DNA of 64,000 nucleotides from the sequence record CP089609.1; one strand, written 5' to 3'. This stretch comes from a plasmid. Below are positions 1,546-53,860 of the stretch, one piece after another. How positions within the stretch are numbered: the first letter of the stretch is position 1; every line of letters starts with the position of its first letter. The position numbers were made by a program, and so were the translations under genes. Below the pieces are notes generated by a model. That model was not told where the DNA came from. It did not search any database and saw only the letters and a program-made list of their open reading frames with translations.

Positions 1546-3698
1546 CCATTCTGTCCCGTCCGCGGCCCCTGTCCTGGGACACCACATGCCCGCCGCACCT
1601 TGCTGTCGCCGGCCTCCTCTTGCGCTGGGTCCACTCCGGAAGCCGTTGGCGCGTACGCATCTTCTACGGACTGCTCATCTGGCAACTCGCCGGCATCTTC
1701 CTTCTGGTCATCGCCGGTCCGGCCCTCGCAGATCCCGCGGGGGCACAGCCCGGCGGCGAAAAACCAAACCCCGCCGACACCTCAATGTTCGGCTGGATTG
1801 ACGTCAAAGACTCCAGCGACATCCCGGTCAGCCAGTACTTCATCGCAGTCGACCAAGGCAACGCATTCTCCGTCATCCCCGGTGTCAACAACGACAAGAA
1901 AGCGAACATCGCCCTGGCCCCGATCCTTGAACTCGAATACGGCTTGATCAAGATCACCTGCCAGATCGCGTTGTGGATCATCGGCTACGGACTGTCGTTC
2001 AAGTGGATGAACTTCATCGCCAGACCATTCCAAAAGCTCGGTGAGGCCACCGAAAGTCTCACCAACAGCACAGCACTCCTGGTACTCGCGTTGACTCTGG
2101 CCGGCGGTGTCGCAGCCTTCTCGGTAGTGCGCGGCCGCCACTCCAAAGCCGCATATCAAGTCGGCTCGGCGCTGGTGATCACCGCCCTGATGGGCAGCAT
2201 CTTCGCTCAACCAGTCGCTCAACTGCTCGGCGAAAACGGCTACCTGTCCAAAGCCCGCGACGTAGGTATCAGCATCTCGTCAGGCATTACCGACGGCACC
2301 GGAGTCTCCCCAGCCGGGTCGGAAGCCAGTATCAACAAGCTCCAGACCAGCCTGGCCGACGGATTCCTCCGCACCCCCACCCAACTCCTCAATTTCAACG
2401 CCAACGTTGACAAGAACGGATGCAAGGGCGTGTGGAACACCGGAATCCGCAATGGCGATCGAGACAAGCTCAAGGACAACATCGAAAAGTGCGGCGCCTC
2501 AGGCAAGAAGATGAAATACGCCGCCGATCACCTCACCGGCGACCGACTCGCCAGCGCCGCCGCCATCGAATTCCTCGCCGGGATCTTGCTGCTGTTCGGC
2601 TGCTTCCTGATCGGCAAGATCGTGCTAACCACCGTCATCGCACTGACCAACGCCATCCTCCTACCTGTTGTTGGCACTCTCGGCGTGGTGGCCGGCGGGC
2701 TGCAAGGCATGGCCTTCAAATGCCTATGCAACATCGGTCTGGCTCTAATCAAACTGCCGCTGACCGTCGTCTACGCCGGCGCCTACGCATCACTGCTAGG
2801 CAGCATGCTCAAAGTCGATGGAAACCCGGTCCAGATTCTGCTCCTCGCAACAGTTCTCCTCGTCATCGCAATCGTCGCTTTCCGGCGTATCGACGCGGGC
2901 CTGAAGAACTCTCACGGCAACGTTCTGAGCTTCCTCAACCGCGGCGGCGGATCCCCCGAGCTCCCCAAGGCCACCACACCCACTCTGCTTAAACGCACAG
3001 GAGCGTTGGCGCTGCAGGCGGGAGGGGCAGCCTTGGGTGTGCCGCCATCGCTGACTGGGTTGGCAATCGGCGCCGGCCGCGGAGTACACAACAAACTCTC
3101 GTCGTCGAAGGCGCACAAACTGCCGGCCACCCAGTCAGCACAAGAGCAGGAACGGCAGCAGTGGTGGGCACAGCAACACCAGTGGTATGGCGCGCAGTAC
3201 CAATGGTGGGCCACGAACCAGGCCAGCGAAAATGCACCTACTCCGGTCGGCTCTGGCCCGTCCTCCCCGCTCCCCGCGCCGCCGGCCGATGGCCCGTCGT
3301 CGTCCGCGCCACGGGTCAACGAAATCCTTCGCGAAGCGCCTCCGATGCATCCTTACGTCGCCAGCGCTGTCGGCGCCATGCCTCAGCAGATTCAGCCCGT
3401 CATTTCTCTTCCGCCTGAGGACCACCCTCACCACACCGCTGGCGGCGGTTCAGTGCCGCCCGTTAACACGTCGTTCTGCGGTGCGCCGCTAGCCCGCGGC
3501 GGTCGATGCAGTAACCGCGCCGGTTCGTGCCCTCATCACTCTGCCGGTGGAGGAATTCTGCCGCCCACACGGGCTCCGCAGCCCACCCCGGTCTATTCGG
3601 CTCCCTCCCCGCCGATTCCGCCCGCACGATGTCCATGCCCTCCGAACCGACGCCCTCGTCCGAGGTGTCCCCGGCGCGGTCCCGAGTCGCCGACCTGA
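1542..3698 (+). CDS. Polytopic membrane protein with Pro/Gln/Trp-rich C-terminal tail (possibly VirB6/TrbL-like channel component)
   Basis: 718-aa ORF with at least 8 hydrophobic helices. Its ATGA start overlaps the upstream ATPase stop. The C-terminal 100 aa are compositionally odd and may be mistranslated. Confidence 0.5.
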   Translation: MTILSRPRPLSWDTTCPPHLAVAGLLLRWVHSGSRWRVRIFYGLLIWQLAGIFLLVIAGPALADPAGAQPGGEKPNPADTSMFGWIDVKDSSDIPVSQYFIAVDQGNAFSVIPGVNNDKKANIALAPILELEYGLIKITCQIALWIIGYGLSFKWMNFIARPFQKLGEATESLTNSTALLVLALTLAGGVAAFSVVRGRHSKAAYQVGSALVITALMGSIFAQPVAQLLGENGYLSKARDVGISISSGITDGTGVSPAGSEASINKLQTSLADGFLRTPTQLLNFNANVDKNGCKGVWNTGIRNGDRDKLKDNIEKCGASGKKMKYAADHLTGDRLASAAAIEFLAGILLLFGCFLIGKIVLTTVIALTNAILLPVVGTLGVVAGGLQGMAFKCLCNIGLALIKLPLTVVYAGAYASLLGSMLKVDGNPVQILLLATVLLVIAIVAFRRIDAGLKNSHGNVLSFLNRGGGSPELPKATTPTLLKRTGALALQAGGAALGVPPSLTGLAIGAGRGVHNKLSSSKAHKLPATQSAQEQERQQWWAQQHQWYGAQYQWWATNQASENAPTPVGSGPSSPLPAPPADGPSSSAPRVNEILREAPPMHPYVASAVGAMPQQIQPVISLPPEDHPHHTAGGGSVPPVNTSFCGAPLARGGRCSNRAGSCPHHSAGGGILPPTRAPQPTPVYSAPSPPIPPARCPCPPNRRPRPRCPRRGPESPT

Positions 3699-3725
3699 TT
3701 AATACGCCCCGGTAAGCGCAGCGCC

Positions 3726-4922
3726 ATGAATTTGAGTTCCAAGTCGCTCATCGCGGGGCTGATCACTCTGCTGATCAGTGCCATGGCCATCCCGATCGTG
3801 ATTATCGGGATGGTCATCGCGCCGTCGTCATCCGTCAACAGCCCTGACCAGCAGCTCAACGACTGCGACACCCAGATGCGCGCTGCCGGAGTCCTGGCCC
3901 AGAACGCCCCAGCCACCACTGTCACCGGACCCAACGCCGGATCCAACGCGGAAACCGTTGTCGCAGTCGGCGAGAAGATGGGCATCCCGCCCCAAGGCAT
4001 CATCGTCGCGCTGGCCACGGCCCTCACCGAATCGGGCTTGAAGAACTACGCCAACGACGGCTCCGATCCGCGCCTCAAACCTGACCAGAAGGGTGTCGAG
4101 GCGTCACTGCGGTTCCCGCACGACGCGGTCGGCCGTGACCACGGATCCATCGGCATCATGCAGCAACAGTGGCCCTGGTGGGGCACCATGCAAGAGCTCA
4201 TGACGCCGGCGATCGCCGCGCGCAAGTTCTACGAAGCACTACTCAAAGTCGCGAACTGGCAGAACCTTCCGGTAACCGTCGCCGCGCAGTCGGTGCAGGG
4301 CAGTGCGCTGCCCGATGCCTACGCCAAATGGGAACCTCGAGCACGAGCGCTCTACGCCGCCTACCGCGGCGCCGGCGGGCATACCAGCGACGAGGACGCC
4401 GCCATGGTCGGCGTCGCCGTCGCCGCAACAGGCCCCGCCGACAACCAGGAAGCCAACGCCGGCAACAGCGGCTCTCTGTGCGACATCCTCAAAGTCAGTG
4501 TCGCCCAACAAAAGGTCCAGGAAGCCAACCCAGCAATCCACTCCAGCGAAGCCGGAGTACGAGCTGTCCGAGCCGCCCAGTCGCAAATCGGCCAGCCGTA
4601 TGTATGGGGCGGCGGAGCACTCGACGGGCCATCCAAAGGCGGATTCGACTGCTCTGGCCTGACCCGCTACGCCGTCTACCAGGCCACCGGAAAAGAACTA
4701 CCACGCACCACATACGACCAAGTCAACGCCGGGGTCGCAGTCCCCGACCTCAGCCAAATGCTCCCCGGAGATCTCGTGCTGTCCAACTTCAGCGAGCGCG
4801 GCCCCGAACACGTCCAGCTCTACGCCGGCGGCGGCCAGGTCGTGGAAGCTCAAACCTTCGGCGTACCCGTGAAAATGAGTCCGTTCCCGAAGGACAAGGT
4901 GATCGTCCGCCGTGTCCTGTGA
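3726..4922 (+). CDS. Secreted peptidoglycan hydrolase: transglycosylase-like domain + C-terminal NlpC/P60 peptidase
   Basis: N-terminal TM/signal segment. The central domain has GSIGIMQQQWPWW...AARKFYEALL (lysozyme-like/transglycosylase fold). The C-terminus has GQPYVWGG..GFDCSGL...HVQLYAG, the NlpC/P60 Cys-His signature. Confidence 0.75.
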   Translation: MNLSSKSLIAGLITLLISAMAIPIVIIGMVIAPSSSVNSPDQQLNDCDTQMRAAGVLAQNAPATTVTGPNAGSNAETVVAVGEKMGIPPQGIIVALATALTESGLKNYANDGSDPRLKPDQKGVEASLRFPHDAVGRDHGSIGIMQQQWPWWGTMQELMTPAIAARKFYEALLKVANWQNLPVTVAAQSVQGSALPDAYAKWEPRARALYAAYRGAGGHTSDEDAAMVGVAVAATGPADNQEANAGNSGSLCDILKVSVAQQKVQEANPAIHSSEAGVRAVRAAQSQIGQPYVWGGGALDGPSKGGFDCSGLTRYAVYQATGKELPRTTYDQVNAGVAVPDLSQMLPGDLVLSNFSERGPEHVQLYAGGGQVVEAQTFGVPVKMSPFPKDKVIVRRVL

Positions 4923-5277
4923 GCACCAAAACTCCAGCCATGAACGACGTACACAACGCCTCAACGCACACGAACTTCGCTGCCACATTCTTCGTGTGCT
5001 GCAAGCAGCCGACGGTCCGCTGACCACGGCGCAGCTTCGCGATCGGATCAGCACATCGCTCGGTCGCACGGTGGTGATCGAAACTGTCTACCGGGCCTTG
5101 GCGATCCTGGCCGACCGCGGCGCGGTCCGCCGTACCGCGCGCTCCCAGGGCCGCCATACCCACTGGGTGGTGGCCGATGCCGCCTTAGTCGGCGGCCTTG
5201 GCCCAGATATTGCTGCCTCCGCCGTGACCGGATCGCCAGATCCACCGGCATATACCTCAGGCCATGAGCACCACTGA
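4912..5277 (+). CDS. Winged-helix DNA-binding protein (PadR/ArsR-like)
   Basis: 121-aa ORF; LRCHILRVLQAADGPLTTAQLRDRI...VYRALAILADRG matches a wHTH recognition pattern. Start is uncertain. Confidence 0.45.
   Translation: MSCEHQNSSHERRTQRLNAHELRCHILRVLQAADGPLTTAQLRDRISTSLGRTVVIETVYRALAILADRGAVRRTARSQGRHTHWVVADAALVGGLGPDIAASAVTGSPDPPAYTSGHEHH
5247..5266 (+). promoter_or_regulatory. Leaderless promoter/start motif GGCATATACCTCaGGcCATG (copy a)
   Basis: The motif ends in the ATG of 5264-6046. A TATACC hexamer sits at -13..-8 relative to the A of the ATG. Confidence 0.5.
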
Positions 5278-6046
5278 CCCCGTGCGCGATCCCGATGAGG
5301 CCGCAGATTGGCCCGACGACTGGGACTCTTTTGATGAGTCGGGCTACCTCGACAATGACGCGCCGGCAGCGGTCCCACGCGTGGAGTTGATTCCCTCGAT
5401 GTGGGCCTACTCTGACGGCGCAGAGCATCGCCCGCCGACCCATCGGCGCAAGATTGGTGTTGCCGTGGGGATCGTCGGTGTGGTTCTGGGCGCGCTGGTG
5501 TGGTGGTGGTCTGACCGATCCGACACGGCCAGCGCCGTGATCATCACCCCTGCCCCGGCCTCCGCACCGCCCAGCTCAGCTCAAGCGCCCGATGACTCGA
5601 CGTATGCCGCCGTGCCGACGATCGATGCTCCCCCGCCGACCGGCCAGCCAGCCACCGGCCCTGCCGACCAGGTAGCTGCCGGCTTCGCCGCCGACTACGG
5701 CAATCCCGGTACGGGCAAAGACGACTGGCTGGCCCGCATCAGTCGATGGACCTCTCCGCAGCTGTCCGACGGATACCGGTTGACAGACCCGAACCGGTTG
5801 CCAGAAGCAGTCTTTCAGCATCTTTCCCCGCCGCTCAACGATGACAGCGGCACGATCGTCTACAACGCGATCTACGACACCATGACGTTGGAAATCCGCC
5901 TAGGGTTCGTCGAGGACCGGTGGCAAGTCATCGCCGCGCTCGACACTCAATCCCACGTCGCTGACGTTTCTCCACCGGGCAGCACACCGGCACCGACTCC
6001 TCCGTTTCTTCCACCCGGGCTGACCCCAGTGCCCGCCGGAACGTGA
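5264..6046 (+). CDS. Pro/Ala-rich membrane-anchored hypothetical protein
   Basis: 260-aa ORF with a single TM helix (VAVGIVGVVLGALVWWW). The start codon sits directly after the conserved GGCATATACCTC..CATG motif. Confidence 0.55.
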   Translation: MSTTDPVRDPDEAADWPDDWDSFDESGYLDNDAPAAVPRVELIPSMWAYSDGAEHRPPTHRRKIGVAVGIVGVVLGALVWWWSDRSDTASAVIITPAPASAPPSSAQAPDDSTYAAVPTIDAPPPTGQPATGPADQVAAGFAADYGNPGTGKDDWLARISRWTSPQLSDGYRLTDPNRLPEAVFQHLSPPLNDDSGTIVYNAIYDTMTLEIRLGFVEDRWQVIAALDTQSHVADVSPPGSTPAPTPPFLPPGLTPVPAGT

Positions 6047-6176
6047 TCCTCAACTCCTCTCCTGGCCCTAATGGAGATCCCTCAGAACAGGACGCCCGCA
6101 TGCCCGAGCTGATCGTCCCCGCCGATCTCAACGACACCGCCGGATCGAACCCGGCGGCGCATCCCAGGCGGTCGTT

Positions 6177-8452
6177 ATGACGCGGCGCCGCGAATCTCAG
6201 CTTGTTTGGCGAGGCACCCAGGTGCCGTGGGTGGCCGCTACGCTGCTCGTCGGCTCGCTTGGCATCGCAGTCGCCGAGTGGTCACATTTGAGCGATCCTG
6301 AGCGAGTTCCCATGTTCGCAGCGGCCATCATGATGGCCGCGTCGCTGGCCGCCGCAGCGATCACCGCCATCTTCACCTACCAGGCCTCCAGACGGGCCAG
6401 CATCACAGCTGAGCTCGTCCAGGCGTTGCATCAAGTATTGGGGTGGTCCGAAGCAAGTCACGGAATTATCCGCGCCAGCTCCTGGAAATCATTGGATGCC
6501 AAGGCCAGTCGCCACGGAGTAGCACCGCAGAAGGTCCGGATGACCTACACGCCGGCAGCCTCCGCGGCGATCAAACAACAGACCGTCGCCGCCCGGGGAC
6601 GCAGCAGCGCCCCGACTCTTTCAGAACCCTCGACAGACGACGCCGCCGGGGCCAATCCCGACTGGCTTCGCGTCATCAAGGATCTGCTGGCAGAAACGCT
6701 CGGACAGCCCTACAAGCTGTCGGTAGACCGTCGACGCTGGCAGTTGACCGCCATCCCGCTATCCGACGCGGACGAACCAGAGGAAGAGCCAAAAGCGATA
6801 CAACGGCTCAGGGCGATCATGGCGACCCTGTTCGAGAACACCGCCACGGTCACCAGCTACGAGATGAACAGCAAGGGGCACATTACTGAGTTCGTGGTGA
6901 AGCACGACATATCGGCCAAACTTATTGGAACGCCACGCATTCACCGCATTGAGCGTGTCGTCACCACGGTGTTGCCCGGGCGCTGGCGCGGCGACTTCGA
7001 TTGGATGACTGACACAGTCACATTCCAGCTGCGGCCCACCCTGCCCAAGCTGGTGTGGCCCCGTGTCTACCCCGAGACTGCGGGTAATGCAGCTGCTCTG
7101 GCGGCCTACAGGAGCTGCAAGTTCGTCTACGCCTACGACGAAGATCGCAAGCCGATTTCCTGGGAGCCGCGAAAGGTACCGCACCGACTGATCATCGGTC
7201 CCACAGGCAGCGGCAAGACTAGTACGATCCACACCTTTATCACGCAGGCTTCGCGCGCCCACTGGGCGATCAGCATCGCTGACCGAAAGAACGTGGAGTA
7301 CAAGGGTTTCCGAGACTGGCCGAACGTTCAGATGGTGGCTACCAGGATCGAAGACCAGATCGCCCTGATCCACTACGCCTGGGTACTGATGAAACAGCGC
7401 TACGAAAGCGTCGAGACAGGTGCGGCGCGGATCGAAGACTTCCCACCGGTCTTGCTGGTGCTCGATGAATTCACTGAACTGGTCAAAGATATCGCAGCTT
7501 GGTATATCAAGCTGCGCGGCTCACGTAAGCCATCCGAAATCAAAGGGTGGCCCAAAGAACTACCGATCGAGGAGGAAGTTGGGTCGATTCTGCGTCTGGG
7601 CCGCACCGCCCGCATCCACATCATCATCGGCATGCAGCGTCCCGACGTGAAGTACGTCGAAGGCGAGAACCGTGACAATCTGACAGGTCGACAGTCCCTG
7701 GGCCGGCTTGGCCGCCAAGGCGCCGACATGCTGTGGGGCGACTACTACACCGGCACCACGATCCCGCCCGGGCTGCTCGGCCGGGGAATGGCCTATGACG
7801 ATCACGGTGACCCTGTCGAAGTACAGAACTTTTTCACTCCCGATCCGAACAAGCCCGACGACTTGGCCGATAGCAACGCCAACAAGGTTCTCAAGGCGCT
7901 GCGCCCGACCACCACCACCCACAAACGCATCGTGTTTGACACTCCGTTCGACCCGCACCAGGACGACGACTTTACATGGACTGACTACCTGGAGGCGCCC
8001 GTTTGGTATGCGACGGATCGTCCCGACTTGGACCCGATGAGCCCGAGTATCGGTTCAAGCCCAAGGCGTCGGCCACGGATCCGACGGCGGCCACCTCGGC
8101 TCTGGGACCCGGTCTTACCCCAAATGTCACCCCGCTGCGGCAGAGCACAACCAGTGGTGGCTCCAAGACGCGTCGCAGGGACGTTGAGGATGACAAGTGG
8201 GCTGGATACGGATCGCCGGCGCCGCGCGCCGTCGATGACCTCCTAATTGGCGACCTGGTGTGCGTGGATCCCGGCCATGGGGTGTGGGCAATCCTGGAGA
8301 AAGAGCCCGAACCCGACCCGATCGATCCTGATGCAGTGATGCTCAGCGTGCGCGGCGAAGGCGACCAGTTCGACCTACTAACTGTTCCCTCCGAGGGCAC
8401 GGTGGTCTCCCGCCCGCTACTTGACGACGACGAGGAATCCAGCGCCGCATGA
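6177..8452 (+). CDS. FtsK/SpoIIIE-family DNA translocase, TraB/TcpA-like conjugative coupling ATPase; apparent frameshift near 7985-8040
   Basis: Two N-terminal TM helices. Walker A LIIGPTGSGKTS, Walker B VLLVLDEFTEL and an arginine-finger region RLGRTARIHIIIGMQRP. After about nt 8030 the GC3 signal moves to a different frame (ORF 8003-8452, acidic C-tail) while the original frame turns Arg-rich. Confidence 0.7.
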
Positions 8453-13066: not shown

Positions 13067-15157
13067 ATGGGCGATCCCGCCGACACCGGACCACCCCCGG
13101 AAACCCGGCAACCACCCCAGGATCTCAGCGCCGAACAATCCACGCTCGGCGGCATGTTACTGAGCAAAGACGCCATCGCCGACGTCATAGAACGACTCCA
13201 ATCCAACGACTTCTACCGGCCAGCCCACCAGACGATCTTCAATGCGATCCTCGACCTCTACGCCGAAGGCGAGCCAGCCGACGCAGTCACCGTCGCAGCA
13301 GAACTCGATCGCCGCGGACAACTTAGAAGGGCCGGCGGCGCACCCTATCTGCACACCCTGATCGCCGGCGTGCCCACGGCGGCCAATGCCGGCTTCTACG
13401 CCGCCATCGTCGCCGACAAAGCCCAACTGCGGCGCCTCGTTGAAGCCGGAACTCGCATCGTCCAGTACGGCTACGCCGGCGCGGACGGCGCCGATGTTCC
13501 CGACGTGGTCGCCCGGGCGCAGGCCGAGGTGTACGACGTCACTGCCGGCCGTCATGCCGAGGACTACTCCCCCTTGGAGGAACTGCTTCAGCCCACCATG
13601 GACGAGCTCGACGCCATCCAGAACCAAGGCGGATCAGCGCGTGGCGTACCAACTGGATTCACCGATCTTGACGCCGTCACCAACGGGCTGCACGGGGGCC
13701 AGATGATCATCATCGCCGCGCGCCCCGGTGTCGGAAAAGCGTTGGCCCTCAATACCGCACTTCCTACGCCGACCGGGTGGACCACCATGGGTGCTGTGAA
13801 TGTGGGCGACGAGCTGCTCGGCGCCGACGGCCGCCCAACTCAAGTCGTAGCCACCACCGAGGTCATGCATGACCGCCCGTGCTATACCGTCGAATTCGAC
13901 GACGGGACGACTCTTGTCGCTGACGCACAGCATCAATGGCCCACCCTCAGCGGCATCCGCACCACCATCGAATTGCAGCCCGGACAAGACCGCATCCCCA
14001 CCACCACCGCTCTCGCGGGCCAGGATTCACGAGGCGCTCTGCCGACGGACCCGTACGTCGCCGGCTGCTGGCTGGCCGACAGGCCCGCCACCCGCCACCT
14101 CCCGCTGTCGGTACCTGAACTGCGACCGTTGCTGCGCGCCACGGCCGAACACCGCCGCTCGGTGCTCGCGGGTCTCCTCGGATCGATCGCCGCCCAGCCC
14201 GCCGGCGGAGTCGTCACGATCCGCGCCAATCCGCGCCGCCCCGGACTGCTCGACTTTGTCGAGGAACTCCTCGCCGCAGAAGGCCTGGCCGCCAGACGCC
14301 TGGGCTGCGACCTGGGCATCCGTTATCGACCGACCGCGCCCCGGCAGCGCACCGTCACCGCAGTGCGCCAGGTCGCATCGGAGCCTGTGCGCTGCGTCGA
14401 GGTCGACAATGCCGATCATGTGTACTTGGCGGGCCGATCCATGGTGCCCACGCACAACTCCACGCTCGGCCTGGACTTCATGCGGTCATGTTCGGTCAGG
14501 CACGGGCTGGCCAGCGTGATCTTCTCGCTGGAGATGAGTAAGTCCGAGATCGTGATGCGCCTGTTGTCGGCGGAAACCGGCATCAAACTCGCCGATATGC
14601 GCTCTGGCCGGATGAGCGATAACGATTGGACCCGGCTTGCCCGAAGGATGGGGGAAATCAGCGAGGCTCCACTCTATATTGACGACTCCCCCAACATGAC
14701 GTTGATGGAAATTCGAGCCAAGGCTCGACGCCTTGCACAGAAACAGGACATTCGCCTCGTTGTCGTAGATTATCTGCAGCTGATGACAACCGGAAAGAAA
14801 TACGATTCGCGACAGCAAGAAGTCTCAGACATGTCACGAGGAATCAAATTACTCGCGAAAGAGCTAGATGTTCCCGTAGTGGCGATATCTCAGCTCAATC
14901 GTGGCCCTGAGCAGAGGCAAGACAAGAGGCCGGTCGTTTCCGACCTTCGCGAAAGCGGATCTTTGGAACAGGACTGCGATTTAGCTATTCTGCTTCATAG
15001 ACCGGATGCAATTGATCGCGATGACCCCCGCGGCGGAGAAGCTGACCTAATTCTAGGAAAACATAGAAACGGAGCAACTGCGGTAATTACAGTTGCCCAT
15101 CAGTTGCATTTAAGTCGCTTTTCGAATATGGCGCGTGGCGACTATACTCAGCTGTAG
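13067..15157 (+). CDS. dnaB: Replicative DNA helicase DnaB interrupted by an in-frame mini-intein
   Basis: N-terminal DnaB primase-interaction motif (LSAEQSTLGGMLLSKDAI). The Walker A RPGVGK is split from its continuation STLGLDFMRS...SLEMS by 240 inserted residues. C-terminal DnaB motifs are present: DYLQLM, SQLNRGPEQR and LRESGSLEQDCDL. Confidence 0.85.
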   Translation: MGDPADTGPPPETRQPPQDLSAEQSTLGGMLLSKDAIADVIERLQSNDFYRPAHQTIFNAILDLYAEGEPADAVTVAAELDRRGQLRRAGGAPYLHTLIAGVPTAANAGFYAAIVADKAQLRRLVEAGTRIVQYGYAGADGADVPDVVARAQAEVYDVTAGRHAEDYSPLEELLQPTMDELDAIQNQGGSARGVPTGFTDLDAVTNGLHGGQMIIIAARPGVGKALALNTALPTPTGWTTMGAVNVGDELLGADGRPTQVVATTEVMHDRPCYTVEFDDGTTLVADAQHQWPTLSGIRTTIELQPGQDRIPTTTALAGQDSRGALPTDPYVAGCWLADRPATRHLPLSVPELRPLLRATAEHRRSVLAGLLGSIAAQPAGGVVTIRANPRRPGLLDFVEELLAAEGLAARRLGCDLGIRYRPTAPRQRTVTAVRQVASEPVRCVEVDNADHVYLAGRSMVPTHNSTLGLDFMRSCSVRHGLASVIFSLEMSKSEIVMRLLSAETGIKLADMRSGRMSDNDWTRLARRMGEISEAPLYIDDSPNMTLMEIRAKARRLAQKQDIRLVVVDYLQLMTTGKKYDSRQQEVSDMSRGIKLLAKELDVPVVAISQLNRGPEQRQDKRPVVSDLRESGSLEQDCDLAILLHRPDAIDRDDPRGGEADLILGKHRNGATAVITVAHQLHLSRFSNMARGDYTQL
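13739..14458 (+). other. DnaB mini-intein (240 aa) in the P-loop; Ala1, block-F Cys, ends THN with +1 Ser (class-3-like)
   Basis: Insertion exactly after GVGK. First intein residue is Ala, not Cys/Ser. CVEVDNADHVYLAG is block F with Cys, VPTHN|S is block G, and there is an HQW in the block-B region. 240 aa leaves no room for a full homing endonuclease. Confidence 0.65.
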
Positions 15158-16529: not shown

Positions 16530-17120
16530 TTAAGGTGTGCCGGCCGGCGGTGAGCTGTCAGCCAGCTCGTCCTGAGCGATCTGGACGTGAACGCCGTGGC
16601 CGATATGGATTAGTCGCACCAAGCCACCGCTGTACGGGTTTGTGCTCCTCGCCAAGATGGTGACGGGCTGCCCTTGGTCGGCTATGGCGGGGCGGTATGC
16701 CTGAGCGTGGTAGGTGCGCAGCCCGATCAGGGTCAGCAGCGGATTGCTGGTGAGCAGTATCGTCGTGCGGACTGCGAGGAATCCGAGGAGGAACAGGGCG
16801 GCCAGCGCCGCCCAGCGGGCCGCCGACGGAGAAACCAGTGCGATAGCACTGGGAACGACGTAGAGACTCAGAAGGCTGTCGGCGCTCGTGACGCTGCGCA
16901 CATCCTGGAGCTGCCACAGACCCGAATTGAGGTTGGGAACCGCGCGGCGGAAAAACAGTACGGTGATCGCAACACCGACGGCGGCGACAACGGCGATCGT
17001 GACGTTCACCCAGGTCTGCGGCCAGAGATGCCGTGTGGCCAACATCAGCAGCGATGGCGAGAGCGTGGAGACCGCCAGAGCCGTCGTGATGAACGGTGAC
17101 GGGCCGAATTCACGCATCAT
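16530..17120 (-). CDS. Polytopic membrane protein downstream of jetC
   Basis: 196 aa with about 5 TM helices. Lies directly 3' of the jetABC-like operon; it has no Toprim motif, so it is not JetD. Confidence 0.5.
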   Translation of the reverse strand: MMREFGPSPFITTALAVSTLSPSLLMLATRHLWPQTWVNVTIAVVAAVGVAITVLFFRRAVPNLNSGLWQLQDVRSVTSADSLLSLYVVPSAIALVSPSAARWAALAALFLLGFLAVRTTILLTSNPLLTLIGLRTYHAQAYRPAIADQGQPVTILARSTNPYSGGLVRLIHIGHGVHVQIAQDELADSSPPAGTP

Positions 17121-17252: not shown

Positions 17253-20200
17253 TCACATCGAGCCTTTCGGTCTGCGGCTTCTGCCGGCGCGGCGAGACCG
17301 CGACGGGTCGGCCGACGGTGTCGGTTCGGGGCCAGTGAGCACGGTGATGCGTGATCGGTGATGGCTGTTCTTGGTGATGCACAGGATCCGGTCAACGTGG
17401 GGTTCGATGCTATTGACCTTGTCGTCAGGTGCCCCGATGATCAGTTGGAAGCCCAGACCTTTCCATGCGGCCACAGCGCGGCCGGCGAAGGCGGCATCGG
17501 ATTTGATGAAGCCTTCATCAAGGATGATCGGCGCGTACCGAGGCCAATGGGCGTCGCCGAGTTGGTAGCGCAGCGCGGCGCCGACGATGAAGGCGATCAG
17601 TTCCTGGGATTCGCCGCCGGATTTGCCGGCCAGGCTGGCGTAGACGTTGAGAGTATTCCCGTCGAGGTCGCGGCGTTCGGCTTCTATGTAGACATGGCGC
17701 CGCACGTCGAGGTAATAGTCACGATCAGAGCCGCCGGCGGATTGCCGGATTCGTTGAATGAATCGGGCCAGGGCCAGGAATCGTTTGTGGACCGCGGAAT
17801 CGTCGTCGCCGGGCGCGGTGGTCGCTCCGGCCAGGGCCTTGAGTTCTTTGCGGAAGGCTGCGATATCGGGGGTTTCGGTGTGGCGCAGCGTAATGTGCAG
17901 TCGGTCGCGGCCGGCACCGAAGGGCAGTGTGGTCAAGATGTCGTTGATAGGGTTGAGTCGCGATTCGATGTCGTCGATGGCTTCTTCGAAGGCGCCGTGT
18001 AGCCGCAGTAAGTCGATGCCGGTCCAGTCGTTGACGTCGCGGACGAAGGTGGCTCGGCGGCGGTGCAAACCTTCGGCGGTGAGATCCTCGAAAATGTCTC
18101 GGTAGCCGGGGTAGGACGACACTTCGGTGCCCAGATCGGGGCGGGGCCATTGACGTTGGAAGGTTTCGAAGGTGCTGGTCAGCATCTTGGCTGCCCGTGC
18201 GGCGGCGTTGCGGGCGGCATCGATCTTGGCGTTGAGGGTGGCGTGCAGCCGGGCCAGCGCGGACCCGAACGCGTCTGGGGTGAGGTCGGTGGTGCCCACG
18301 GCGGCCAACTCGTCATCGAGGCGGGCGACCAAGGCGTCGGCCAGGATCGGAGCGCCGGCGGGTTCGACGAGCTCGCCGCGCCTGCAGTCCAGCCGCCTCA
18401 GCTCGTCGATCAGCCGCTCGGTGTCCGCCTCGGCGAGGTGTCGGGCTCGGGCGGCGGATTCGCGGCGGGCGAGCAATTCTTCACGGCGCGCTCCGGTGTC
18501 GGTGTTCCCCTCGACCAGAGCGGTGCGGTGGGCGTGCAGCGCGTCGAGCTGGGCTGTCGCGGCGGCGACGTCGACGGCAGGCCAGGTGGTGTCGGCTACG
18601 TAGCGGTGGGCGTCGCGGCGGACGGTGAGCTCGTCGAGATCGGTGGCGAGACTGTCGAGTTCTGCGGCGGCTGCGGCCAGTTCGGTCTCGGCTGCGGCCA
18701 GTTCGGTCTGCAGCTGGGTGCGGCGTTCAGCATTGGATACGCCGATCACCGGAGGCCGGCTACCGCCGTGGGCTCCTCGGCGTCCGCTCTTCGTTTGTCC
18801 AGTGATCGTCAGGCCGCGGTCCACGTCGTTCAGTTGCGCGGGGTCATCGACGCAGCGGTAGTCGAAGCTGGTCAGGATGCGGGTCATGAGCCAGCCCGCG
18901 AATGGTGAGGTCTCATCGACTCTCAACCGTGCGGGCAGCATCGCAGTGTCGGCGCAGTCTGGGATGGGCTGGTCGACGGGCGCTCCTTCGAAGTTGACCC
19001 GGCGCGGCAGCTTCAAGGTGTTGATTCGGACCCGGGCTTGTTCGATGCGCCGGGTATCGATCAGCACGGTGACCGAAAGGCCCCCCAGCGCGCGATCAGC
19101 GGCCAACCTCCAGTCGTGGAACCCGTCGGCCATGTCGAGCAGTTCTCCGACGAACGGCACCTCGTGGGGATCGAGTTCGAGCGCTTCGGCGATCAAGCAC
19201 CGCGCGTTGTGCAGTTCGGCGGGGATTACGCCGGCACGGCCGGCCAGCGAGTGCAGTTCGTCGACAAGGGCGCCGCGGCGGGCCTGCAAGCCTTGGTGGC
19301 GACCGACGGCGCGGTCGCGTTGCTCGCGCAGTTCGCCGGCGACGTGGGCATAGTCGACGGACAGGAATTGTGCTGCGGCGGCTTGAGCCGCCGCGAACTG
19401 CTCCGCACTCGATGGTGGATCACCGAGCACCGTGGTGCGTTCCCGGTAGATTTTGAGGGCCTGTTCGGTGTCTTGCTGGGCTTGTGCGACCTGTTCCAGA
19501 GTGCGATCGAGTTCATCGAGCGCGACCGTGCCGGGCTCGGTGTCACGTAGGGCAGCCAGTTCGGTCTCGGTGGCCCGTTCCGCTACTCGGGCCTCAGCTG
19601 CCCGCGCCTCGGCTGTAGCACGGTCAGCGGTGAGCTGTCCGATGGTCGCGTCGATCAGCCGCCGTTCGGTCAGTGTTGCCCACACCTGTATCGGCGATGG
19701 CGAATGATCGTCTGCGGCACCGACCAGCATGCTCAGCGTGGCGAGGTCCTCGTGTGCGCTGCTCCAGTCGCCGTACCATTCGGTGATCGGGGTGAGCGTT
19801 TCGACTTGCAGTTCAGCGGTTTTCATGGCCTCGTAGGAGGCTTGCAAGTCGTCGAAATGGGTGATCGCGTCATCGGCGACCGCCAGGGTCTTGGGTCGTT
19901 CAAGGACCATGCTTTTGAACAGGCCGTCCACGGTGGTGACCGCCCGACCGGCCTGGATCCGTGCCAGCAGTCCCAGTGCGCGCTCCCCTTCGCCGGGCAG
20001 GCCGATGCCCAGCCGGGTGCACACTGCGGTGCAGAACGCTCGGTATGACCCGTGAAAGTCGATGCCCTCGAACCGGGTCCGCAGTTGGGCTGGATCGAAC
20101 TGGGAGGGGGCGGAACTGGCGACCTCTGACAGATCGAATCCTCCATCGATGGTGGCCATCCGTTTGGTGATGTCGTCGAAGCGGGTGGCCGACGGCTGTG

Positions 20201-20615
20201 CGTAGTAGAGCCGCATCGCGGTGAACCGCTGATCGGATTCGGTTCGCCAGGTTGCTGCGATCGCCGACCAGGTCGGGGTGGTGCGACCGCGCAGCACCTG
20301 GTCGGTTAGGGCAGATGATCCCTCGACTCGGTTGTCGTCAATCTTTCCGCGCATGTACCGCAGCACATTTCGCTGATCGCCGCCCCGGGCTCGACCGGAC
20401 ACATTGTCGTTGGATGCGCCGTTGAACGGGATCCGCGAGGGCATCAGCAGCGCGATGTAGGCGTCGAGAAGAGTGGACTTGCCGGTGCCGGTCGCCCCGC
20501 TGATCAGCGTCGACGTCGTCGAGACCTCGACTCGGTGGTGCCCCTCGAAACCGCCCCAGTTCACCAGCTGTATCGATTCCAACAGCCACTGGCCGTGCAT
20601 GGTGTCCTCGGTCAT
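17253..20615 (-). CDS. jetC: SMC/MukB-like ABC ATPase, JetC/MksB-like (wadjet/Mks condensin-like system)
   Basis: 1120 aa. N-terminal LESIQLVNWGGFEGHHRV...LISGATGTGKSTLLDA (Walker A), about 800 aa of coiled-coil-type sequence, and a C-terminal signature GKSGGESQ, Walker B PIILDEGF and a D-loop. An ATGA overlap links it to the upstream gene. Confidence 0.75.
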   Translation of the reverse strand: MTEDTMHGQWLLESIQLVNWGGFEGHHRVEVSTTSTLISGATGTGKSTLLDAYIALLMPSRIPFNGASNDNVSGRARGGDQRNVLRYMRGKIDDNRVEGSSALTDQVLRGRTTPTWSAIAATWRTESDQRFTAMRLYYAQPSATRFDDITKRMATIDGGFDLSEVASSAPSQFDPAQLRTRFEGIDFHGSYRAFCTAVCTRLGIGLPGEGERALGLLARIQAGRAVTTVDGLFKSMVLERPKTLAVADDAITHFDDLQASYEAMKTAELQVETLTPITEWYGDWSSAHEDLATLSMLVGAADDHSPSPIQVWATLTERRLIDATIGQLTADRATAEARAAEARVAERATETELAALRDTEPGTVALDELDRTLEQVAQAQQDTEQALKIYRERTTVLGDPPSSAEQFAAAQAAAAQFLSVDYAHVAGELREQRDRAVGRHQGLQARRGALVDELHSLAGRAGVIPAELHNARCLIAEALELDPHEVPFVGELLDMADGFHDWRLAADRALGGLSVTVLIDTRRIEQARVRINTLKLPRRVNFEGAPVDQPIPDCADTAMLPARLRVDETSPFAGWLMTRILTSFDYRCVDDPAQLNDVDRGLTITGQTKSGRRGAHGGSRPPVIGVSNAERRTQLQTELAAAETELAAAAAELDSLATDLDELTVRRDAHRYVADTTWPAVDVAAATAQLDALHAHRTALVEGNTDTGARREELLARRESAARARHLAEADTERLIDELRRLDCRRGELVEPAGAPILADALVARLDDELAAVGTTDLTPDAFGSALARLHATLNAKIDAARNAAARAAKMLTSTFETFQRQWPRPDLGTEVSSYPGYRDIFEDLTAEGLHRRRATFVRDVNDWTGIDLLRLHGAFEEAIDDIESRLNPINDILTTLPFGAGRDRLHITLRHTETPDIAAFRKELKALAGATTAPGDDDSAVHKRFLALARFIQRIRQSAGGSDRDYYLDVRRHVYIEAERRDLDGNTLNVYASLAGKSGGESQELIAFIVGAALRYQLGDAHWPRYAPIILDEGFIKSDAAFAGRAVAAWKGLGFQLIIGAPDDKVNSIEPHVDRILCITKNSHHRSRITVLTGPEPTPSADPSRSRRAGRSRRPKGSM

Positions 20616-21325
20616 GGCTGCACCGCCTCATCGACCGGTTCGGCCGCCAGTTCCTCTGCGCTGCCGCCATTGTGGGCGCGCAGCCAGGTGCCCAATTCTT
20701 TGAGCCGGTCCAGTGACATCAGCGCTTCCACGATCGGGGCGACCTGGTATCGCTCGCCGTCGCCGGTGTCGATCAACAGGTCCAAGCGCACCAGTGAATC
20801 GATAGCGGCTCGGACCGCTTTCTCGTCGCGAACGTGGTTGGTCGCATCAGCGGGCCGGTAGTTGGCGGCCTCGGCCACCAAATCTGAGCGGTCGACGAAT
20901 ACCGCGGGGTCATCGAGATGACGCCCACGCAGCAGCATGCGTAGGTGCACGAGCAGGATCGTTTCTTCCCTCGAATAGCTCTGATCGTGCAACACCGTCG
21001 GGAAGGGCTGACTGCCTCCATCCGGGCGGGCATGACGCTTGTAGGCCACCGCCCGATCGGTATCGACAACCAACTGAATAAACAAATCGTTGAGCCGCGA
21101 CTCCAACAGCGGCCGGTTCTGGATCAGAACCCGCCAGTCAACAGGGTTGCGGTCGGCGGAAATGTAGCGCTTCTTCAACAAGGAAACCAGGGTCCGCCGT
21201 ACATCTGCACCCAACTGCCCCTGATCACCGTCGAACAGCGGCCCCGGGCCGTCAAAGTCCTCCACAGCCTCCGGTGCAGCCCACTGAGGGCCGATCATGT
21301 CTTCGCCGTCACGCATGTCAGTCAT
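20612..21325 (-). CDS. jetB: JetB/MksE-like protein (DUF4194-like)
   Basis: 237 aa when started at ATG 21325 (MTDMRDGED...). The upstream part of the longer ORF is out-of-frame Arg/Trp junk. It overlaps the jetA stop by 8 nt and the jetC start by 4 nt (ATGA). Size and pattern (VSLLKKRYISADRNPVDWRVLIQNRPLLESRLNDLFIQLVVD...) match JetB. Confidence 0.65.
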   Translation of the reverse strand: MTDMRDGEDMIGPQWAAPEAVEDFDGPGPLFDGDQGQLGADVRRTLVSLLKKRYISADRNPVDWRVLIQNRPLLESRLNDLFIQLVVDTDRAVAYKRHARPDGGSQPFPTVLHDQSYSREETILLVHLRMLLRGRHLDDPAVFVDRSDLVAEAANYRPADATNHVRDEKAVRAAIDSLVRLDLLIDTGDGERYQVAPIVEALMSLDRLKELGTWLRAHNGGSAEELAAEPVDEAVQP

Positions 21326-22840
21326 CGTCACCCCCGACCGCCGCGAGCCCGTCGCGATGACGCTCACCGAATGCGATCGCCGGCAGCCGAAGTTGCCGGT
21401 ACGTGCCATCAGCTCGCACCGTTTCGGCCACCTCGCCCCCCTGCGGATCTGCTTCGTCGAGCTCACCCAGGACCGCGGCCAGTTGCATGAGGCCGAACAC
21501 TTCGACGGGTCGTCGCAGCTCCTCGGGCAATCCGTTGAAGATGCTGCCCGCGCTGGTCTCGTCAGCCCCGGCACCGTCGATCGCCGCGGCCACCGCCGCG
21601 CGCAAAGCACGGACACTGGGCCCTCCACGCCGGCGAAGATCTTCCAGGGACGGGGCATCGGCCATGTCACCGGCGGTGTCGGCCAGGGGCGGGGGCGGCG
21701 CGTGCTCAGCCGGATCGTAGAAACGTTCCCTGGTATTGCCGATCGCCAGTCCGGACAACCCCAACTCCAACGGCACCCTCGCACGCGGCCCACTGAGCGT
21801 CATCCACTGTGCCAGTTCTTTTTTCGCCTCACGCAAGGCCTCATCGAAATCGCGATCACGCAGCGCATCATGGCTTGTGATGTAGGCGCGCAACGTTGAG
21901 GACAACCGTCTGCGAGCCTCCAGCACGGTGGTGATGCCCCGCCTGATGGACGTCACCGTCGCACGGAACTCGGCGACCTCGGTGGGCGGCTGCTGACTCG
22001 TGAACGGATGCGCGGTGATGCTATCGAGATCTCGGCGCAGCTGATTCATCAACGTCTCGTCACGGAGCAGTTCGACTGCACCCATAAACGCTTTGCCTTC
22101 AAGAGATTCCGACATGAGTCGCGCAGAACGGTCCAGATAGGTGTCGAGGACCTCGCCGGTGCGTCGGCCTTCCTGCCGGAATTCTTCGACCACACTGCGG
22201 TGAATCGTCTTCACGTGCTCGGAGAGCCGCAGAAAGTCGGCCGGGAGTTGAGCTGTCATGTCACGAATGTTCAGGTACTGCTCTACTACCCGCGCCTCAG
22301 GCACCATCGGCACTGCGCCGGCGGCGAGTTGATCGCGTTCAGCGCGCAGCTCGGCGATCTGCTCGTCGATGCGCGCCAGCCGCGCGTCGAGGTCTGGATC
22401 TGCATCCATAGCGCAGCGTCGAGCTGCGGCGATGATGGTGCGGATCCTCGATTGGCCGAACACTGATCGATCCCCGGCCACGCGGTAGACGTAGTCGATG
22501 GCCTCGCGGGCGTGGGAGGTCAGCGAATATTCTTCTCCGCCTTCGTCGCTCGGGCCAGGACGAGCCATTGTTCGCCGACCCAGCGTCGGCACAGTCCGCG
22601 GGCTGGTTCGTCGATGGTGTCCGCGCCGGCGGCGCGCAGTTCCCCCAGGAGTGCCTCGACGAGGGTGTGGAAGCGGTCGGCGGGCACCACGCGGTGTTCT
22701 TGGCCGAAGATCGTGGTGAACACGGCGATGACTACCGCGGCATTTTTGCGGGACATGAGGCTCAAGGTGGGTTTGTCGAATGCCCGCTCGGCGCGCGCCA
22801 GATCGGCGGCAACTCCGCTCATCGACGCAACTATCGGCAT
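21318..22840 (-). pseudogene. jetA: JetA/MksF-like protein (DUF3375-like) with an apparent frameshift near 22555-22580
   Basis: The N-terminal 100 aa (ORF 22840-22520: ...RKNAAVVIAVF...ADRFHTLVEALLGELRAAGA...RRWVGEQWL) and the remaining 420 aa (ORF 22592-21318: ...PGPSDEGGEEYSLTSHAREAIDYV...) lie in different frames overlapping by 70 nt. Together they reproduce the JetA layout (W-x-E-x-GWL then YP-GSDEP-YDLT). Confidence 0.65.
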
Positions 22841-26612: not shown

Positions 26613-26896
26613 TGTCTGACGTGCGTGAACAGCTAGCCCAGCTCGGGTCGCAGCTCCGTCATGCCCGGCTGGCAGCGAAGCTGAGTCAAGACGAGCTCGG
26701 CCGGCGCGCGGGTATATCCCGCCAACTGATCAGCCGCATCGAATCCGGCCACCCCAACGGGGAGATTTCCGCTGTCGCCGCAGTCGCCGACGCCCTGGAC
26801 TATCGCCTCACCGCAGTGCCCCACAAGGAGCCCAACCGAAGCGAGCAAGCCGCCCTCGATCTGATCAACCGACTCCGCGACACACCCACCGTCTGA
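26609..26896 (+). CDS. hipB: XRE-family HTH antitoxin HipB-like
   Basis: LSQDELGRRAGISRQLISRIESG is a classic XRE HTH. The stop overlaps the hipA start (TGATG). Confidence 0.7.
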   Translation: MVSDVREQLAQLGSQLRHARLAAKLSQDELGRRAGISRQLISRIESGHPNGEISAVAAVADALDYRLTAVPHKEPNRSEQAALDLINRLRDTPTV

Positions 26897-53603: not shown

Positions 53604-53629
53604 TCCACCCCGCGAGGAAGGAAACCCGC

Positions 53630-53860
53630 ATGTCAACACCCACCGGCGACCACGAATGGACTAGCGAAGCTGTCGACGGCGCATCTCTAGTCCACCTGGC
53701 CCGCCTCGCAACGGCCGGCGACCAGACCGACATCGTCATGTACGTCCGCAGGCAGGCACACCGGCTCCGCACCCGGGCCCCACAAACGTCACAAGCGCTC
53801 ACCGCACTGATCGACGGAGCTGCCCCGCCTCCCAGCCCGCTACGTGGTGCAGCAACATGA
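53630..53860 (+). CDS. Small hypothetical protein
   Basis: ATG 53630 with a GAGGAAGGAAAC SD. Confidence 0.4.
   Translation: MSTPTGDHEWTSEAVDGASLVHLARLATAGDQTDIVMYVRRQAHRLRTRAPQTSQALTALIDGAAPPPSPLRGAAT

Follow-up and report, generated by a model that had tools for sequence, protein, structure and literature searches.

The dnaB gene described here lies on the plus strand of a 64,000-nucleotide stretch of plasmid DNA (sequence record CP089609.1, hereafter the window), where an open reading frame at positions 13067-15157, stop codon included, encodes a 696-aa precursor. Pfam recognises the DnaB N-terminal domain (5e-33) and a DnaB_C domain (5e-91) that is broken in two by an insert, and with the NCBIfam DnaB model TIGR00665 the score of 497 bits exceeds the cut-off of 385; the protein combines the N-terminal domain and the RecA-like C-terminal domain, with Walker A and Walker B, of a replicative DNA helicase. 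The exact protein is deposited as UHJ58733.1, 'replicative DNA helicase (plasmid)', from Mycolicibacterium fortuitum, and an identical DnaB is present on at least 14-16 contigs. The genes flanking dnaB are conjugation-like, and megablast searches of stretches of the window against PLSDB returned essentially no matches, the source plasmid being absent from that database.

The insert occupies positions 13739-14458, exactly 720 nucleotides or 240 codons, and is predicted to be a class 3 intein at the DnaB P-loop site (site b of Kelley et al. 2018). The N-extein (residues 1-224, positions 13067-13738) ends within Walker A, in the P-loop sequence ARPGVGK, and the C-extein (residues 465-696, positions 14459-15154) starts with the +1 Ser (14459-14461); the helicase predicted after splicing is 456 aa in length. 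At the upstream junction the codons GGT GTC GGA AAA (GVGK) are followed by GCG (13739-13741), encoding Ala1, and at the downstream junction the Asn240 codon AAC (14456-14458) precedes TCC, a Ser codon, after which the protein reads TLGLDF. The intein-less plasmid DnaB of pMYCSM03 is colinear with the precursor up to K224, at 77% identity, and resumes at S465, with 75% identity from its own S222 onwards. The boundaries given in the preliminary description are thus correct to the base, by codons as well as by this alignment. The +1 Ser doubles as the P-loop Ser of GKS, a residue with a role in Mg2+ coordination (PMC6195587), and the insert, lying between the Lys and Ser of that motif and sharing block homology with its relatives, belongs to the DnaB P-loop (site b) allele of M. 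smegmatis DnaBi1, the M. leprae DnaB intein and M. chimaera DnaB1, for which the insertion site has been described (PMC6195587). It is the single intein in the plasmid dnaB. An earlier characterisation of the gene as a 'plasmid-type helicase' holds for its location, as attested by the label of UHJ58733.1 and the conjugation-like neighbours, but the sequence forms no type of its own: against mycobacterial dnaB on large genome contigs the N-extein shows 74-80% identity, and against plasmid dnaB 71-79%. A distinct clade of plasmid DnaB sequences was accordingly rejected.

Class 3, or WCT, inteins were defined by Tori et al. 2010 (PMC2807308), and every sequence-level feature of the class is found in the insert when it is aligned to the M. 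smegmatis DnaBi1 and M. chimaera DnaB1 inteins. Position 1 is Ala rather than a Cys, Ser or Thr nucleophile, and the WCT triplet is represented by W67 (B:12), C219 (F:4) and T238 (G:5), accompanied by His65, His239, Asn240 and Ser+1. Blocks A and B lie in the N-terminal splicing region (residues 1-95, positions 13739-14023), with the key codons for Ala1 at 13739-13741, Cys48 at 13880-13882, Asp62 at 13922-13924, His65 at 13931-13933 and Trp67 at 13937-13939. Blocks F and G lie in the C-terminal splicing region (residues 206-240, positions 14354-14458), with Cys219 at 14393-14395, Thr238 at 14450-14452, His239 at 14453-14455 and Asn240 at 14456-14458; block F also supplies His227 (F:13). The features noted at the outset, namely an initial Ala, the CVEVD motif that includes Cys219, the THN end and the +1 Ser, are all present in the sequence, and the block B Trp is found two residues past His65. 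Residues 1-95 align to 6RIX (M. chimaera), and residues 1-90 to 6BS8 (M. smegmatis DnaBi1), in each case ungapped; the C-terminal region corresponds to residues 111-145 of 6RIX and 104-139 of 6BS8. The phmmer match of both insert ends to 6RIX has E 4.7e-49 and that to 6BS8 has E 1e-44, values that are not due to chance. C48, D62, H65 and W67 are numbered identically in the solved class 3 inteins, and C219, T238, H239 and N240 correspond to C118, T137, H138 and N139 of the M. smegmatis intein; the roles of these residues are documented for tested homologues (PMC6195587, PMC2807308, PMC7664689). The signature set of eleven residues (Ala1, Cys48, Asp62, His65, Trp67, Cys219, His227, Thr238, His239, Asn240 and Ser+1) is complete in the window intein and invariant in all 46 tabulated relatives, and the signature stretches of another ~30 loci agree with the class 3 set. 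The signature alone is insufficient as proof of mechanism: Tori et al. described WCT inteins with Ser1 or Cys1 whose class they left undecided (PMC2807308).

Structural modelling points in the same direction. The AlphaFold model has pLDDT values of 88-96 over residues 1-90 and 81-94 over residues 206-240, as also supports the extents assigned to the two splicing regions; by segment the values are >90 for residues 1-89 and 201-220, and 81-85 for residues 221-240. Among the Foldseek matches, 6RIX, 6RIY and 6BS8 rank highest (target-normalised TM scores 0.92-0.94), and all 32 PDB matches at E <= 1e-3 are inteins, intein-like (BIL) or hedgehog domains. Together, the N- and C-terminal splicing regions are predicted to form the horseshoe-like beta fold of HINT (Hedgehog/intein) domains. 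Pfam found no intein or LAGLIDADG domain in the 240-aa insert at E values up to 0.1; Pfam is insensitive to class 3 divergence, and recognition rests on the PDB homologues.

Between the two splicing regions, residues ~96-205 (positions 14024-14353) have no counterpart in the solved mini-inteins 6RIX and 6BS8, and are homologous to the endonuclease part of relatives of 400-417 aa (hhalign probability 96.4%, E 1.4e-9). The first LAGLIDADG motif (residues 106-115, positions 14054-14083) reads YVAGCWLADR in place of YTLGAWLGDG in full-length relatives, such that the Asp is retained while both flanking Gly residues are gone, and in the AlphaFold model its helix is absent with pLDDT <50. In the case of the second motif, the hhalign-aligned region (residues 131-187, positions 14129-14299) spans the motif and the next strand-helix unit, and reads ...RRSVLAGLLGSIAAQ... 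as opposed to ...RRALLAGLLDTDGT... in a full-length relative, with both Asp residues gone; the motif itself, LLGSIAA, is without Asp or Glu. For comparison, residues 283-343 of a 417-aa relative (L062) match Pfam LAGLIDADG_3 at 31.6 bits (cut-off 22.5), and also Hom_end. Compared with the 417-aa forms, the endonuclease has lost the greater part of its first half and the tail of its second. In LAGLIDADG folds, the segments missing here, from the interval separating the motifs and from beyond the motif 2 unit, include the DNA-binding sheets. The AlphaFold model of the relic has pLDDT values of 31-71 with three predicted helices. Nonsynonymous divergence is 2-3 times higher in the relic (pN 0.35-0.57) than elsewhere in dnaB (0.17-0.25), a qualitative comparison confined to pN by region, as synonymous sites are saturated (Nei-Gojobori dN/dS; pS 0.5-0.8), and the relic is apparently evolving under relaxed constraint. 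The catalytic acidic residue at the end of each LAGLIDADG helix and the complete alpha-beta-beta-alpha-beta-beta-alpha core in each half, expected of an active double-motif endonuclease, are thus not both retained, and Pfam gives no match to the relic. An initial statement that the insert lacks a full homing endonuclease is correct but incomplete, in that the middle ~105 aa represent a decayed LAGLIDADG relic by alignment and by hhalign. Similarly, the term 'mini-intein' is appropriate in the sense of an intein without a working endonuclease, but at 240 aa the insert is about 100 aa longer than the true minis of the family (130-147 aa), having kept an endonuclease relic where a mini-intein, with a total of ~130-160 aa, has a short linker between blocks B and F.

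From sequence and modelling, the locus very probably represents a plasmid DnaB whose Walker A loop is interrupted by a class 3 intein, with an endonuclease relic inside and no longer mobile. The relic has suffered deletions, motif 2 is without its catalytic Asp and constraint is relaxed; the intein would therefore no longer be mobile by homing, and would now be inherited along with dnaB. In the class 3 mechanism the block F Cys is absolutely required, two branched intermediates are formed, and N-terminal cleavage proceeds without nucleophiles at position 1 or +1 (PMC2807308). Because of homology to tested class 3 DnaB inteins, we infer that the window intein splices by the following steps, with Cys219 as the likely obligate nucleophile. 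With the intein in the P-loop, the precursor would be unable to bind or hydrolyse ATP before excision. Cys219 (F:4), helped by His65, Trp67 and Thr238, would attack the Lys(-1)-Ala1 peptide bond to give a thioester branched intermediate, the N-extein would be handed on to Ser+1, and cyclisation of Asn240 would release the intein. An O-to-N acyl shift would then rejoin GVGK to STLGLDF in the 456-aa helicase.

It might be supposed that the true ends of the intein lie at a nearby Cys, Ser or Thr, and that splicing follows the standard class 1 route, but such an arrangement has nothing in its favour except that inteins mostly begin with Cys or Ser, and we regard it as vanishingly improbable. A Cys, Ser or Thr start was looked for near the N-terminus by alignment to the intein-less DnaB, and none is nearby; that protein runs from GHGK straight into STL, the 224 residues upstream of Ala1 and those from Ser465 onwards are colinear extein, and no Cys occurs in the insert before residue 48. 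None of the 46 tabulated relatives departs from Ala1, and the intact loci listed in addition all begin with ALAL or ALRV. A class 1 intein with a shifted N-terminus was rejected on the intein-less alignment. The intein could instead be splicing-dead and dnaB a non-functional plasmid passenger, as in the Arth_1007 pseudogene of Arthrobacter FB24, and the decayed, low-confidence 105-aa insert would fit such a scenario. In-frame stops interrupt the intein at three related genome loci (L041, L061 and L090), so dead copies of the allele may exist, and 1-nucleotide deletions truncate other genes in the window. We nevertheless consider a dead intein quite unlikely, given that the catalytic and signature residues are all intact, that 696 codons remain open in a GC-rich genome, that replacement changes in the exteins are far fewer than silent ones relative to other plasmid dnaB genes (pN about 0.17-0.21 versus pS 0.59-0.80), and that the identical protein is kept across many independent assemblies. 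Arth_1007 itself is different, with WDT in place of WCT and an extein of just 66 residues (PMC3196547). The dnaB gene of the window looks functional, to judge by its intact ORF, low extein pN and identical protein on many contigs.

As for the central part, residues 96-205 might constitute a kept functional domain, for instance a DNA-binding or regulatory one, or a minimal endonuclease that is still active; this would account for the ~110-aa architecture common to three plasmids. A relic of like length and layout is found in the window, in the M. aubagnense plasmid and in M. avium pP3-3a; the window and M. aubagnense sequences are 50% identical over the relic, with pN (0.35) below pS (0.56), and three helices are predicted there. 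Yet motif 2 has lost its Asp residues and motif 1 the Gly residues on either side of its Asp, deletions have removed segments from between the motifs and from past the motif 2 unit, and pLDDT does not exceed 71 over the relic. Over the same region the window and pP3-3a sequences are just 28% identical, with pN close to pS, closely related plasmid and chromosomal minis are wholly without residues 96-205, and other lineages carry different, independent deletions. A functional middle domain is on this evidence very unlikely, and the reading of a decaying endonuclease is preferred, under which the 240-aa form is a stage between the endonuclease-bearing forms of 400-417 aa and the minis of 130-147 aa. 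A poorly folding relic of ~105 aa in place of the short linker of tested relatives could result in slower or impaired folding and splicing.

In M. smegmatis DnaBi1, H2O2 (through a disulfide with the catalytic Cys) and zinc each block splicing in a reversible manner (PMC6195587, PMC7360933), and the catalytic Cys219 as well as Cys48 is conserved in the window intein. It is conceivable, if rather unlikely, that the intein serves the plasmid as a post-translational switch, acting on plasmid replication or on host load; oxidative or metal stress would then hold up splicing, and replication of the plasmid would be coupled to the redox state of the cell. In a weaker variant, the retained endonuclease relic may tune the stress response. 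A conditional-splicing allele is also found in plasmid helicases of non-tuberculous mycobacteria, which would be of some interest if control of splicing affects plasmid replication. The deposited record names UHJ58733.1 just as a replicative DNA helicase, and its annotation could now include the intein together with the intein class and the dead endonuclease. Otherwise the intein is an ordinary member of the well-studied mycobacterial class 3 DnaB family, and leaves the understanding of class 3 inteins unchanged. Within the DnaBi1/DnaB1 subgroup it represents intermediate endonuclease decay, and supports an earlier suggestion that the linker of DnaBi1/DnaB1 mini-inteins is the remnant of a lost homing endonuclease.

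The class 3 P-loop allele occurs in about 80 actinomycete dnaB genes and on several mycobacterial plasmids, with lengths of 130 to 501 aa, the true minis being 130-159 aa. The P-loop reads A-x-G-K rather than G-x-G-K in 37 of the 80 loci, and the class 3 signature is the same there. Length statistics are drawn from the genome loci; a list of homologous proteins (139-420 aa), many of them visibly truncated, served for the endonuclease comparison and not for lengths. In an exploratory neighbour-joining tree (104 columns, without bootstrap, and hence indicative), short forms arise repeatedly within the allele family, suggesting recurrent loss of the endonuclease.

The closest characterised systems are mycobacterial. 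M. smegmatis DnaBi1 (6BS8; Kelley et al. 2018, PMC6195587) and the M. leprae DnaB intein share the host protein, P-loop site b and Ser+1 with the window intein, and DnaBi1 has the same class 3 signature, the same numbering through W67, the same HQWPT block B and about 74% identity over a 104-residue core. Cys48, which is needed for DnaBi1 splicing as judged by substitution (PMC6195587), is likewise conserved. However, DnaBi1, at 139 aa, has a short disordered linker in the place of the LAGLIDADG relic of the 240-aa window intein, and the M. smegmatis dnaB is chromosomal with a second intein, DnaBi2, whereas the window dnaB is plasmid-borne with one. M. chimaera DnaB1 (6RIX/6RIY; PMC7664689) is the best match by sequence and by fold (target-normalised TM 0.94), and shares the Cys-His-Thr triad and the Trp, with similarity up to residue 95 and again from residue 206; at 145 aa it is without a counterpart of residues ~96-205. 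More distant, and compared by description, is the class 3 prototype, the mycobacteriophage Bethlehem DnaB intein (MP-Be; PMC2807308), which likewise sits in a DnaB-family host protein and shares a non-nucleophilic residue 1, WCT and a hydroxyl +1 residue, but is 341 aa long with Thr+1. Phage matches to the window intein reach at most 46% identity and are mostly partial. At the other extreme, P-loop inteins of 400-417 aa (some ~500 aa) in Rhodococcus, Nocardia, Mycobacterium, Nonomuraea and others represent the same allele and site, with 74-77% identity to the window intein in the splicing core. These long LAGLIDADG forms retain both motifs intact (…WLGDG… and …LLDTDG…), a Cys-rich insertion and Pfam matches to LAGLIDADG_3 and Hom_end, and their block B reads HQWLT or HQWRT instead of HQWPT. 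Four other plasmid dnaB genes carry the same intein and are annotated just as 'replicative DNA helicase', with the intein unmentioned. Those of M. aubagnense (NZ_CP122996, 240 aa) and M. avium pP3-3a (NZ_CP085281, 235 aa) have the relic architecture of the window intein, while those of the M. chimaera AH16 plasmid and M. alvei pJCM12272 are true minis of 145 and 130 aa; over the parts that can be aligned, whole-protein identity is no more than 64-68% where the intein is long and 74-76% where it is a mini.

The dnaB ORF (13067..15157, plus strand, 696 codons) encodes a Pfam DnaB N-terminal domain and a DnaB_C domain in two separated stretches, and scores 497 bits against the NCBIfam DnaB equivalog model TIGR00665 (cut-off 385). 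At the 5' junction, the DNA and its translation read GGT GTC GGA AAA (GVGK) up to 13738 and GCG (Ala) at 13739-41; at the 3' junction, ACG CAC AAC (Thr-His-Asn) runs up to 14458 and is followed by TCC (Ser) and then TLGLDF, giving an insert of exactly 240 codons (13739-14458) that breaks the Walker A loop between Lys and Ser. These boundaries are exact, because the intein-less plasmid DnaB of pMYCSM03 (Mycobacterium sp. JS623), which reads uninterrupted ...GHGK-STLAMDF... across the insertion point, is colinear with the window protein up to K224 and again from S465. The preliminary description had given the same coordinates and end residues, with which junction DNA, translation and alignment all agree. 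The case it named against itself, a true start at a nearby Cys or Ser, is absent: the insert offers no alternative Cys, Ser or Thr N-terminus, its first Cys being residue 48.

When the 240 residues were searched by sequence against all PDB chains, three entries matched strongly, two of the M. chimaera intein Mch DnaB1 (6RIX, E 4.7e-49; 6RIY, 2.5e-48) and one of the M. smegmatis class 3 intein Msm DnaBi1 (6BS8, E 1e-44). Each match falls into two pieces, an ungapped one over residues 1-95 (or 1-90) and a second from residue 205/206 to 240. Since the N-terminal alignment is ungapped, published functional residue numbers transfer directly, and correspond to Cys48, Asp62, His65 (a DxxH variant of block B) and Trp67. 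In the C-terminal piece, Cys219, Thr238, His239 and Asn240 are equivalent to Msm Cys118, Thr137, His138 and Asn139, and His227 is the block F:13 His. The class 3 signature is a non-nucleophilic residue 1 co-varying with Trp B:12, Cys F:4 and Thr G:5, with Ser or Thr at +1 (Tori et al., PMC2807308). The proposed class 3, or WCT (Trp/Cys/Thr), reading is borne out by alignment to the solved class 3 inteins, with Ala1, Trp67 (the block B Trp whose loss was to count against it), Cys219, Thr238, the His-Asn end and Ser+1 all present. An AlphaFold model based on 83 aligned sequences, with pLDDT of 88-96 across residues 1-90 and 81-94 across 201-240, predicts a HINT fold for the splicing domain; in a Foldseek search of the PDB, 6RIX, 6RIY and 6BS8 come first (target-normalised TM 0.92-0.94), ahead of further inteins, hedgehog domains and an intein-like (BIL) domain. 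Every feature of sequence and fold by which the DnaB P-loop class 3 allele is recognised is found in the insert, which on alignment and predicted fold is a member of that allele.

None of the class 3 catalytic residues is missing, and the dnaB ORF and its exteins look maintained. By homology to tested inteins (PMC2807308, PMC6195587, PMC7664689), Cys219 would attack the Lys(-1)-Ala1 bond to form a thioester branch, the N-extein would be handed to Ser+1, cyclisation of Asn240 would release the intein, and an acyl shift would leave a DnaB of 456 aa whose GVGKST P-loop is intact. Splicing of DnaBi1 is reversibly inhibited by oxidants and zinc (PMC6195587, PMC7360933); because Cys48 and the catalytic Cys are conserved, such control may, speculatively, apply to the plasmid helicase too.

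Residues ~96-205 are without counterpart in solved mini-inteins. Searched alone against the retrieved homologues, they match the endonuclease portion of longer DnaB inteins, several of which have precomputed LAGLIDADG_3 or Hom_end domains, and the correspondence is displayed in pairwise alignments. When the intein is aligned with several genomic relatives of 254 to 417 aa, LAGLIDADG motif 1 reads PPYTLGAWLGDGT in full-length relatives and DPYVAGCWLADRP in the window, and motif 2 reads QRRALLAGLLDTDGTVTAGG and HRRSVLAGLLGSIAAQPAGG, respectively; the inter-motif segments (including a Cys-rich insertion) and the segment after the motif 2 unit are deleted in the window. When a profile of the three long relics from plasmids (the window, an M. 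aubagnense plasmid and M. avium pP3-3a) was compared with one of 30 full-length endonuclease regions, intein residues 131-187 matched at 96.4% probability (E 1.4e-9). The Pfam models LAGLIDADG_3 and Hom_end give no score for the window's insert, and the equivalent stretch of a 417-aa relative is above threshold for both. In the AlphaFold model the region has only three helices, at pLDDT 31-71. Replacement changes accumulate 2-3x faster there than in the splicing regions or exteins (pN 0.35-0.57 versus 0.17-0.25 elsewhere), and between the window and pP3-3a pN approximates pS, both comparisons being qualitative as synonymous sites are saturated. We therefore conclude that this Pfam-silent but homologous, poorly predicted and fast-changing segment is a dead, shrinking homing endonuclease. 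The absence of a full homing endonuclease, as originally proposed, is upheld by the deletions and by the lack of a Pfam score. The term mini-intein holds functionally but not structurally, a LAGLIDADG relic being kept between the splicing regions; the intein is neither a true mini-intein nor the bearer of an intact LAGLIDADG endonuclease.

In the case of three full-length relatives (loci L048, L062 and L064), a Cys-rich segment, CVVCG…C…C…CxxCG…CQxCRN, lies between the two LAGLIDADG motifs, roughly at residues 190-265 in the 417-aa inteins, and is missing from the window's relic. Its sequence suggests a zinc-ribbon-type module added to the endonuclease.

A single scan of species-representative genomes yielded relatives at 80 loci across Actinomycetes, in genera including Rhodococcus, Nocardia, Mycobacterium/Mycolicibacterium, Nonomuraea, Kribbella, Kibdelosporangium and Streptosporangium. 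Intact inteins extracted from these loci are 130-501 aa long, and all are inserted after …GK and before STLG…. A1, C48, D62, H65, W67, C(F:4), H(F:13), T-H-N and S+1 are invariant in 46/46 tabulated inteins, and the signature stretches of about 30 further loci are the same. Three loci carry in-frame stops within the intein reading frame (L041, an uncultured Actinomycetota MAG; L061, Nonomuraea fastidiosa; L090, Nonomuraea salmonea), and may represent either dnaB pseudogenes or faulty assembly. In an exploratory neighbour-joining tree (104 core columns, no bootstrap), the window falls into one group with four plasmid forms, two of them long and two mini, and with the minis of Msm and Mch; all members of this group have HQWPT at block B, and they stand apart from the endonuclease-bearing HQWLT/HQWRT forms. 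In the same tree, a 254-aa Rhodococcus form nests among 417-aa forms and the Nocardia 146-aa forms cluster separately, an indication that short forms arose several times independently. The pattern agrees with the usual intein cycle, which leads from invasion through decay of the endonuclease to a mini-intein.

The identical 696-aa protein is GenBank UHJ58733.1, 'replicative DNA helicase (plasmid) [Mycolicibacterium fortuitum]', whose longest carrying contig is 220 kb; it also occurs in a set of 16 assembled contigs, the largest of 97 kb, and its 90% identity cluster holds another 696-aa member, annotated in M. conceptionense. By tblastn, other mycobacterial plasmids have intein-containing dnaB, and many plasmid dnaB genes are without intein. 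The helicase had been called plasmid-type, and plasmid-borne it is by the label of UHJ58733.1, but it is not a separate sequence type: a distinct plasmid extein is ruled out by overlapping N-extein identities, 74-80% to mycobacterial dnaB on large genome contigs and 71-79% to plasmid copies.

The gene neighbours are consistent with a conjugative plasmid. Upstream of dnaB, on the plus strand, lies a conjugation-like run with a VirB4-like AAA_10 ATPase (16..1545), an NlpC/P60 hydrolase (3726..4922), an FtsK/EccC-like ATPase (6177..8246) and, within 16..8246, a 718-aa protein weakly matching the CD3337/EF1877 mobilome membrane family. The window ORFs scanned included no identifiable relaxase. Close downstream, on the minus strand, is a Wadjet/MksBEF-like condensin cluster (17253..22592) of JetC (SbcC-like, 1120 aa, 17253..20615), JetB (DUF4194) and JetA (DUF3375). 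A JetD/Toprim nuclease was not recognised there, and the ORF of 196 aa adjoining JetC (16530..17120) has no Pfam match. Wadjet-type systems are generally described as anti-plasmid, which makes such a cluster on a source-labelled plasmid curious. Further downstream, family matches identify a HipA-family toxin kinase (26896..28323), an RNB-domain (RNase II/R-like) protein (38838..40835, minus strand), a T4 RnlA-family RNA ligase (48982..50076) and a D12-class N6-adenine DNA methyltransferase (52681..53664), accessory genes of the kind that large mycobacterial plasmids typically carry. For most of the remaining long ORFs scanned there was no family match. GC content across the 64-kb window is 61-67%, and the window contains no tRNA genes.

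On the M. aubagnense plasmid (locus L001, 8245..13449) and an M. alvei plasmid (L004, 4872..7707), a Tn7-like transposition module annotated as TnsA-like, Mu transposase C-terminal domain, ATP-binding and TniQ immediately follows the intein-containing dnaB. This suggests that dnaB may be an attachment-site neighbourhood for Tn7-like transposons; nothing comparable lies directly downstream of the window dnaB.

A public contig that is 99.96% identical to the window (L006, Logan SRR30933975) has four single bases that are missing from the window, at 3606, 8041, 10516 and 22551. These deletions most likely account for four ORF size differences between the window and the contig's gene calls (718 versus 724 aa; 689 versus 758 aa for the FtsK-like ATPase; 323 versus 445 aa; and 424 versus 507 aa for JetA/DUF3375), and may be assembly or homopolymer errors or mark real pseudogenes. 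dnaB is unaffected.

The observation and reading of the preliminary description were correct, and the intein is an ordinary member of a known allele. New, in a minor way, are a plasmid-borne copy of the class 3 DnaB intein without prior annotation (a non-exhaustive literature search found no papers discussing such copies) and a recognisable endonuclease relic in a subgroup where the solved inteins have just a linker. That this linker is the remnant of a lost endonuclease had been suggested before by Kelley et al., who also placed DnaBi1 at the P-loop 'insertion site b', where the +1 Ser doubles as the Mg2+-coordinating P-loop serine (PMC6195587). The window junction is identical to that of Msm DnaBi1, at site b and with the +1 Ser as P-loop serine.
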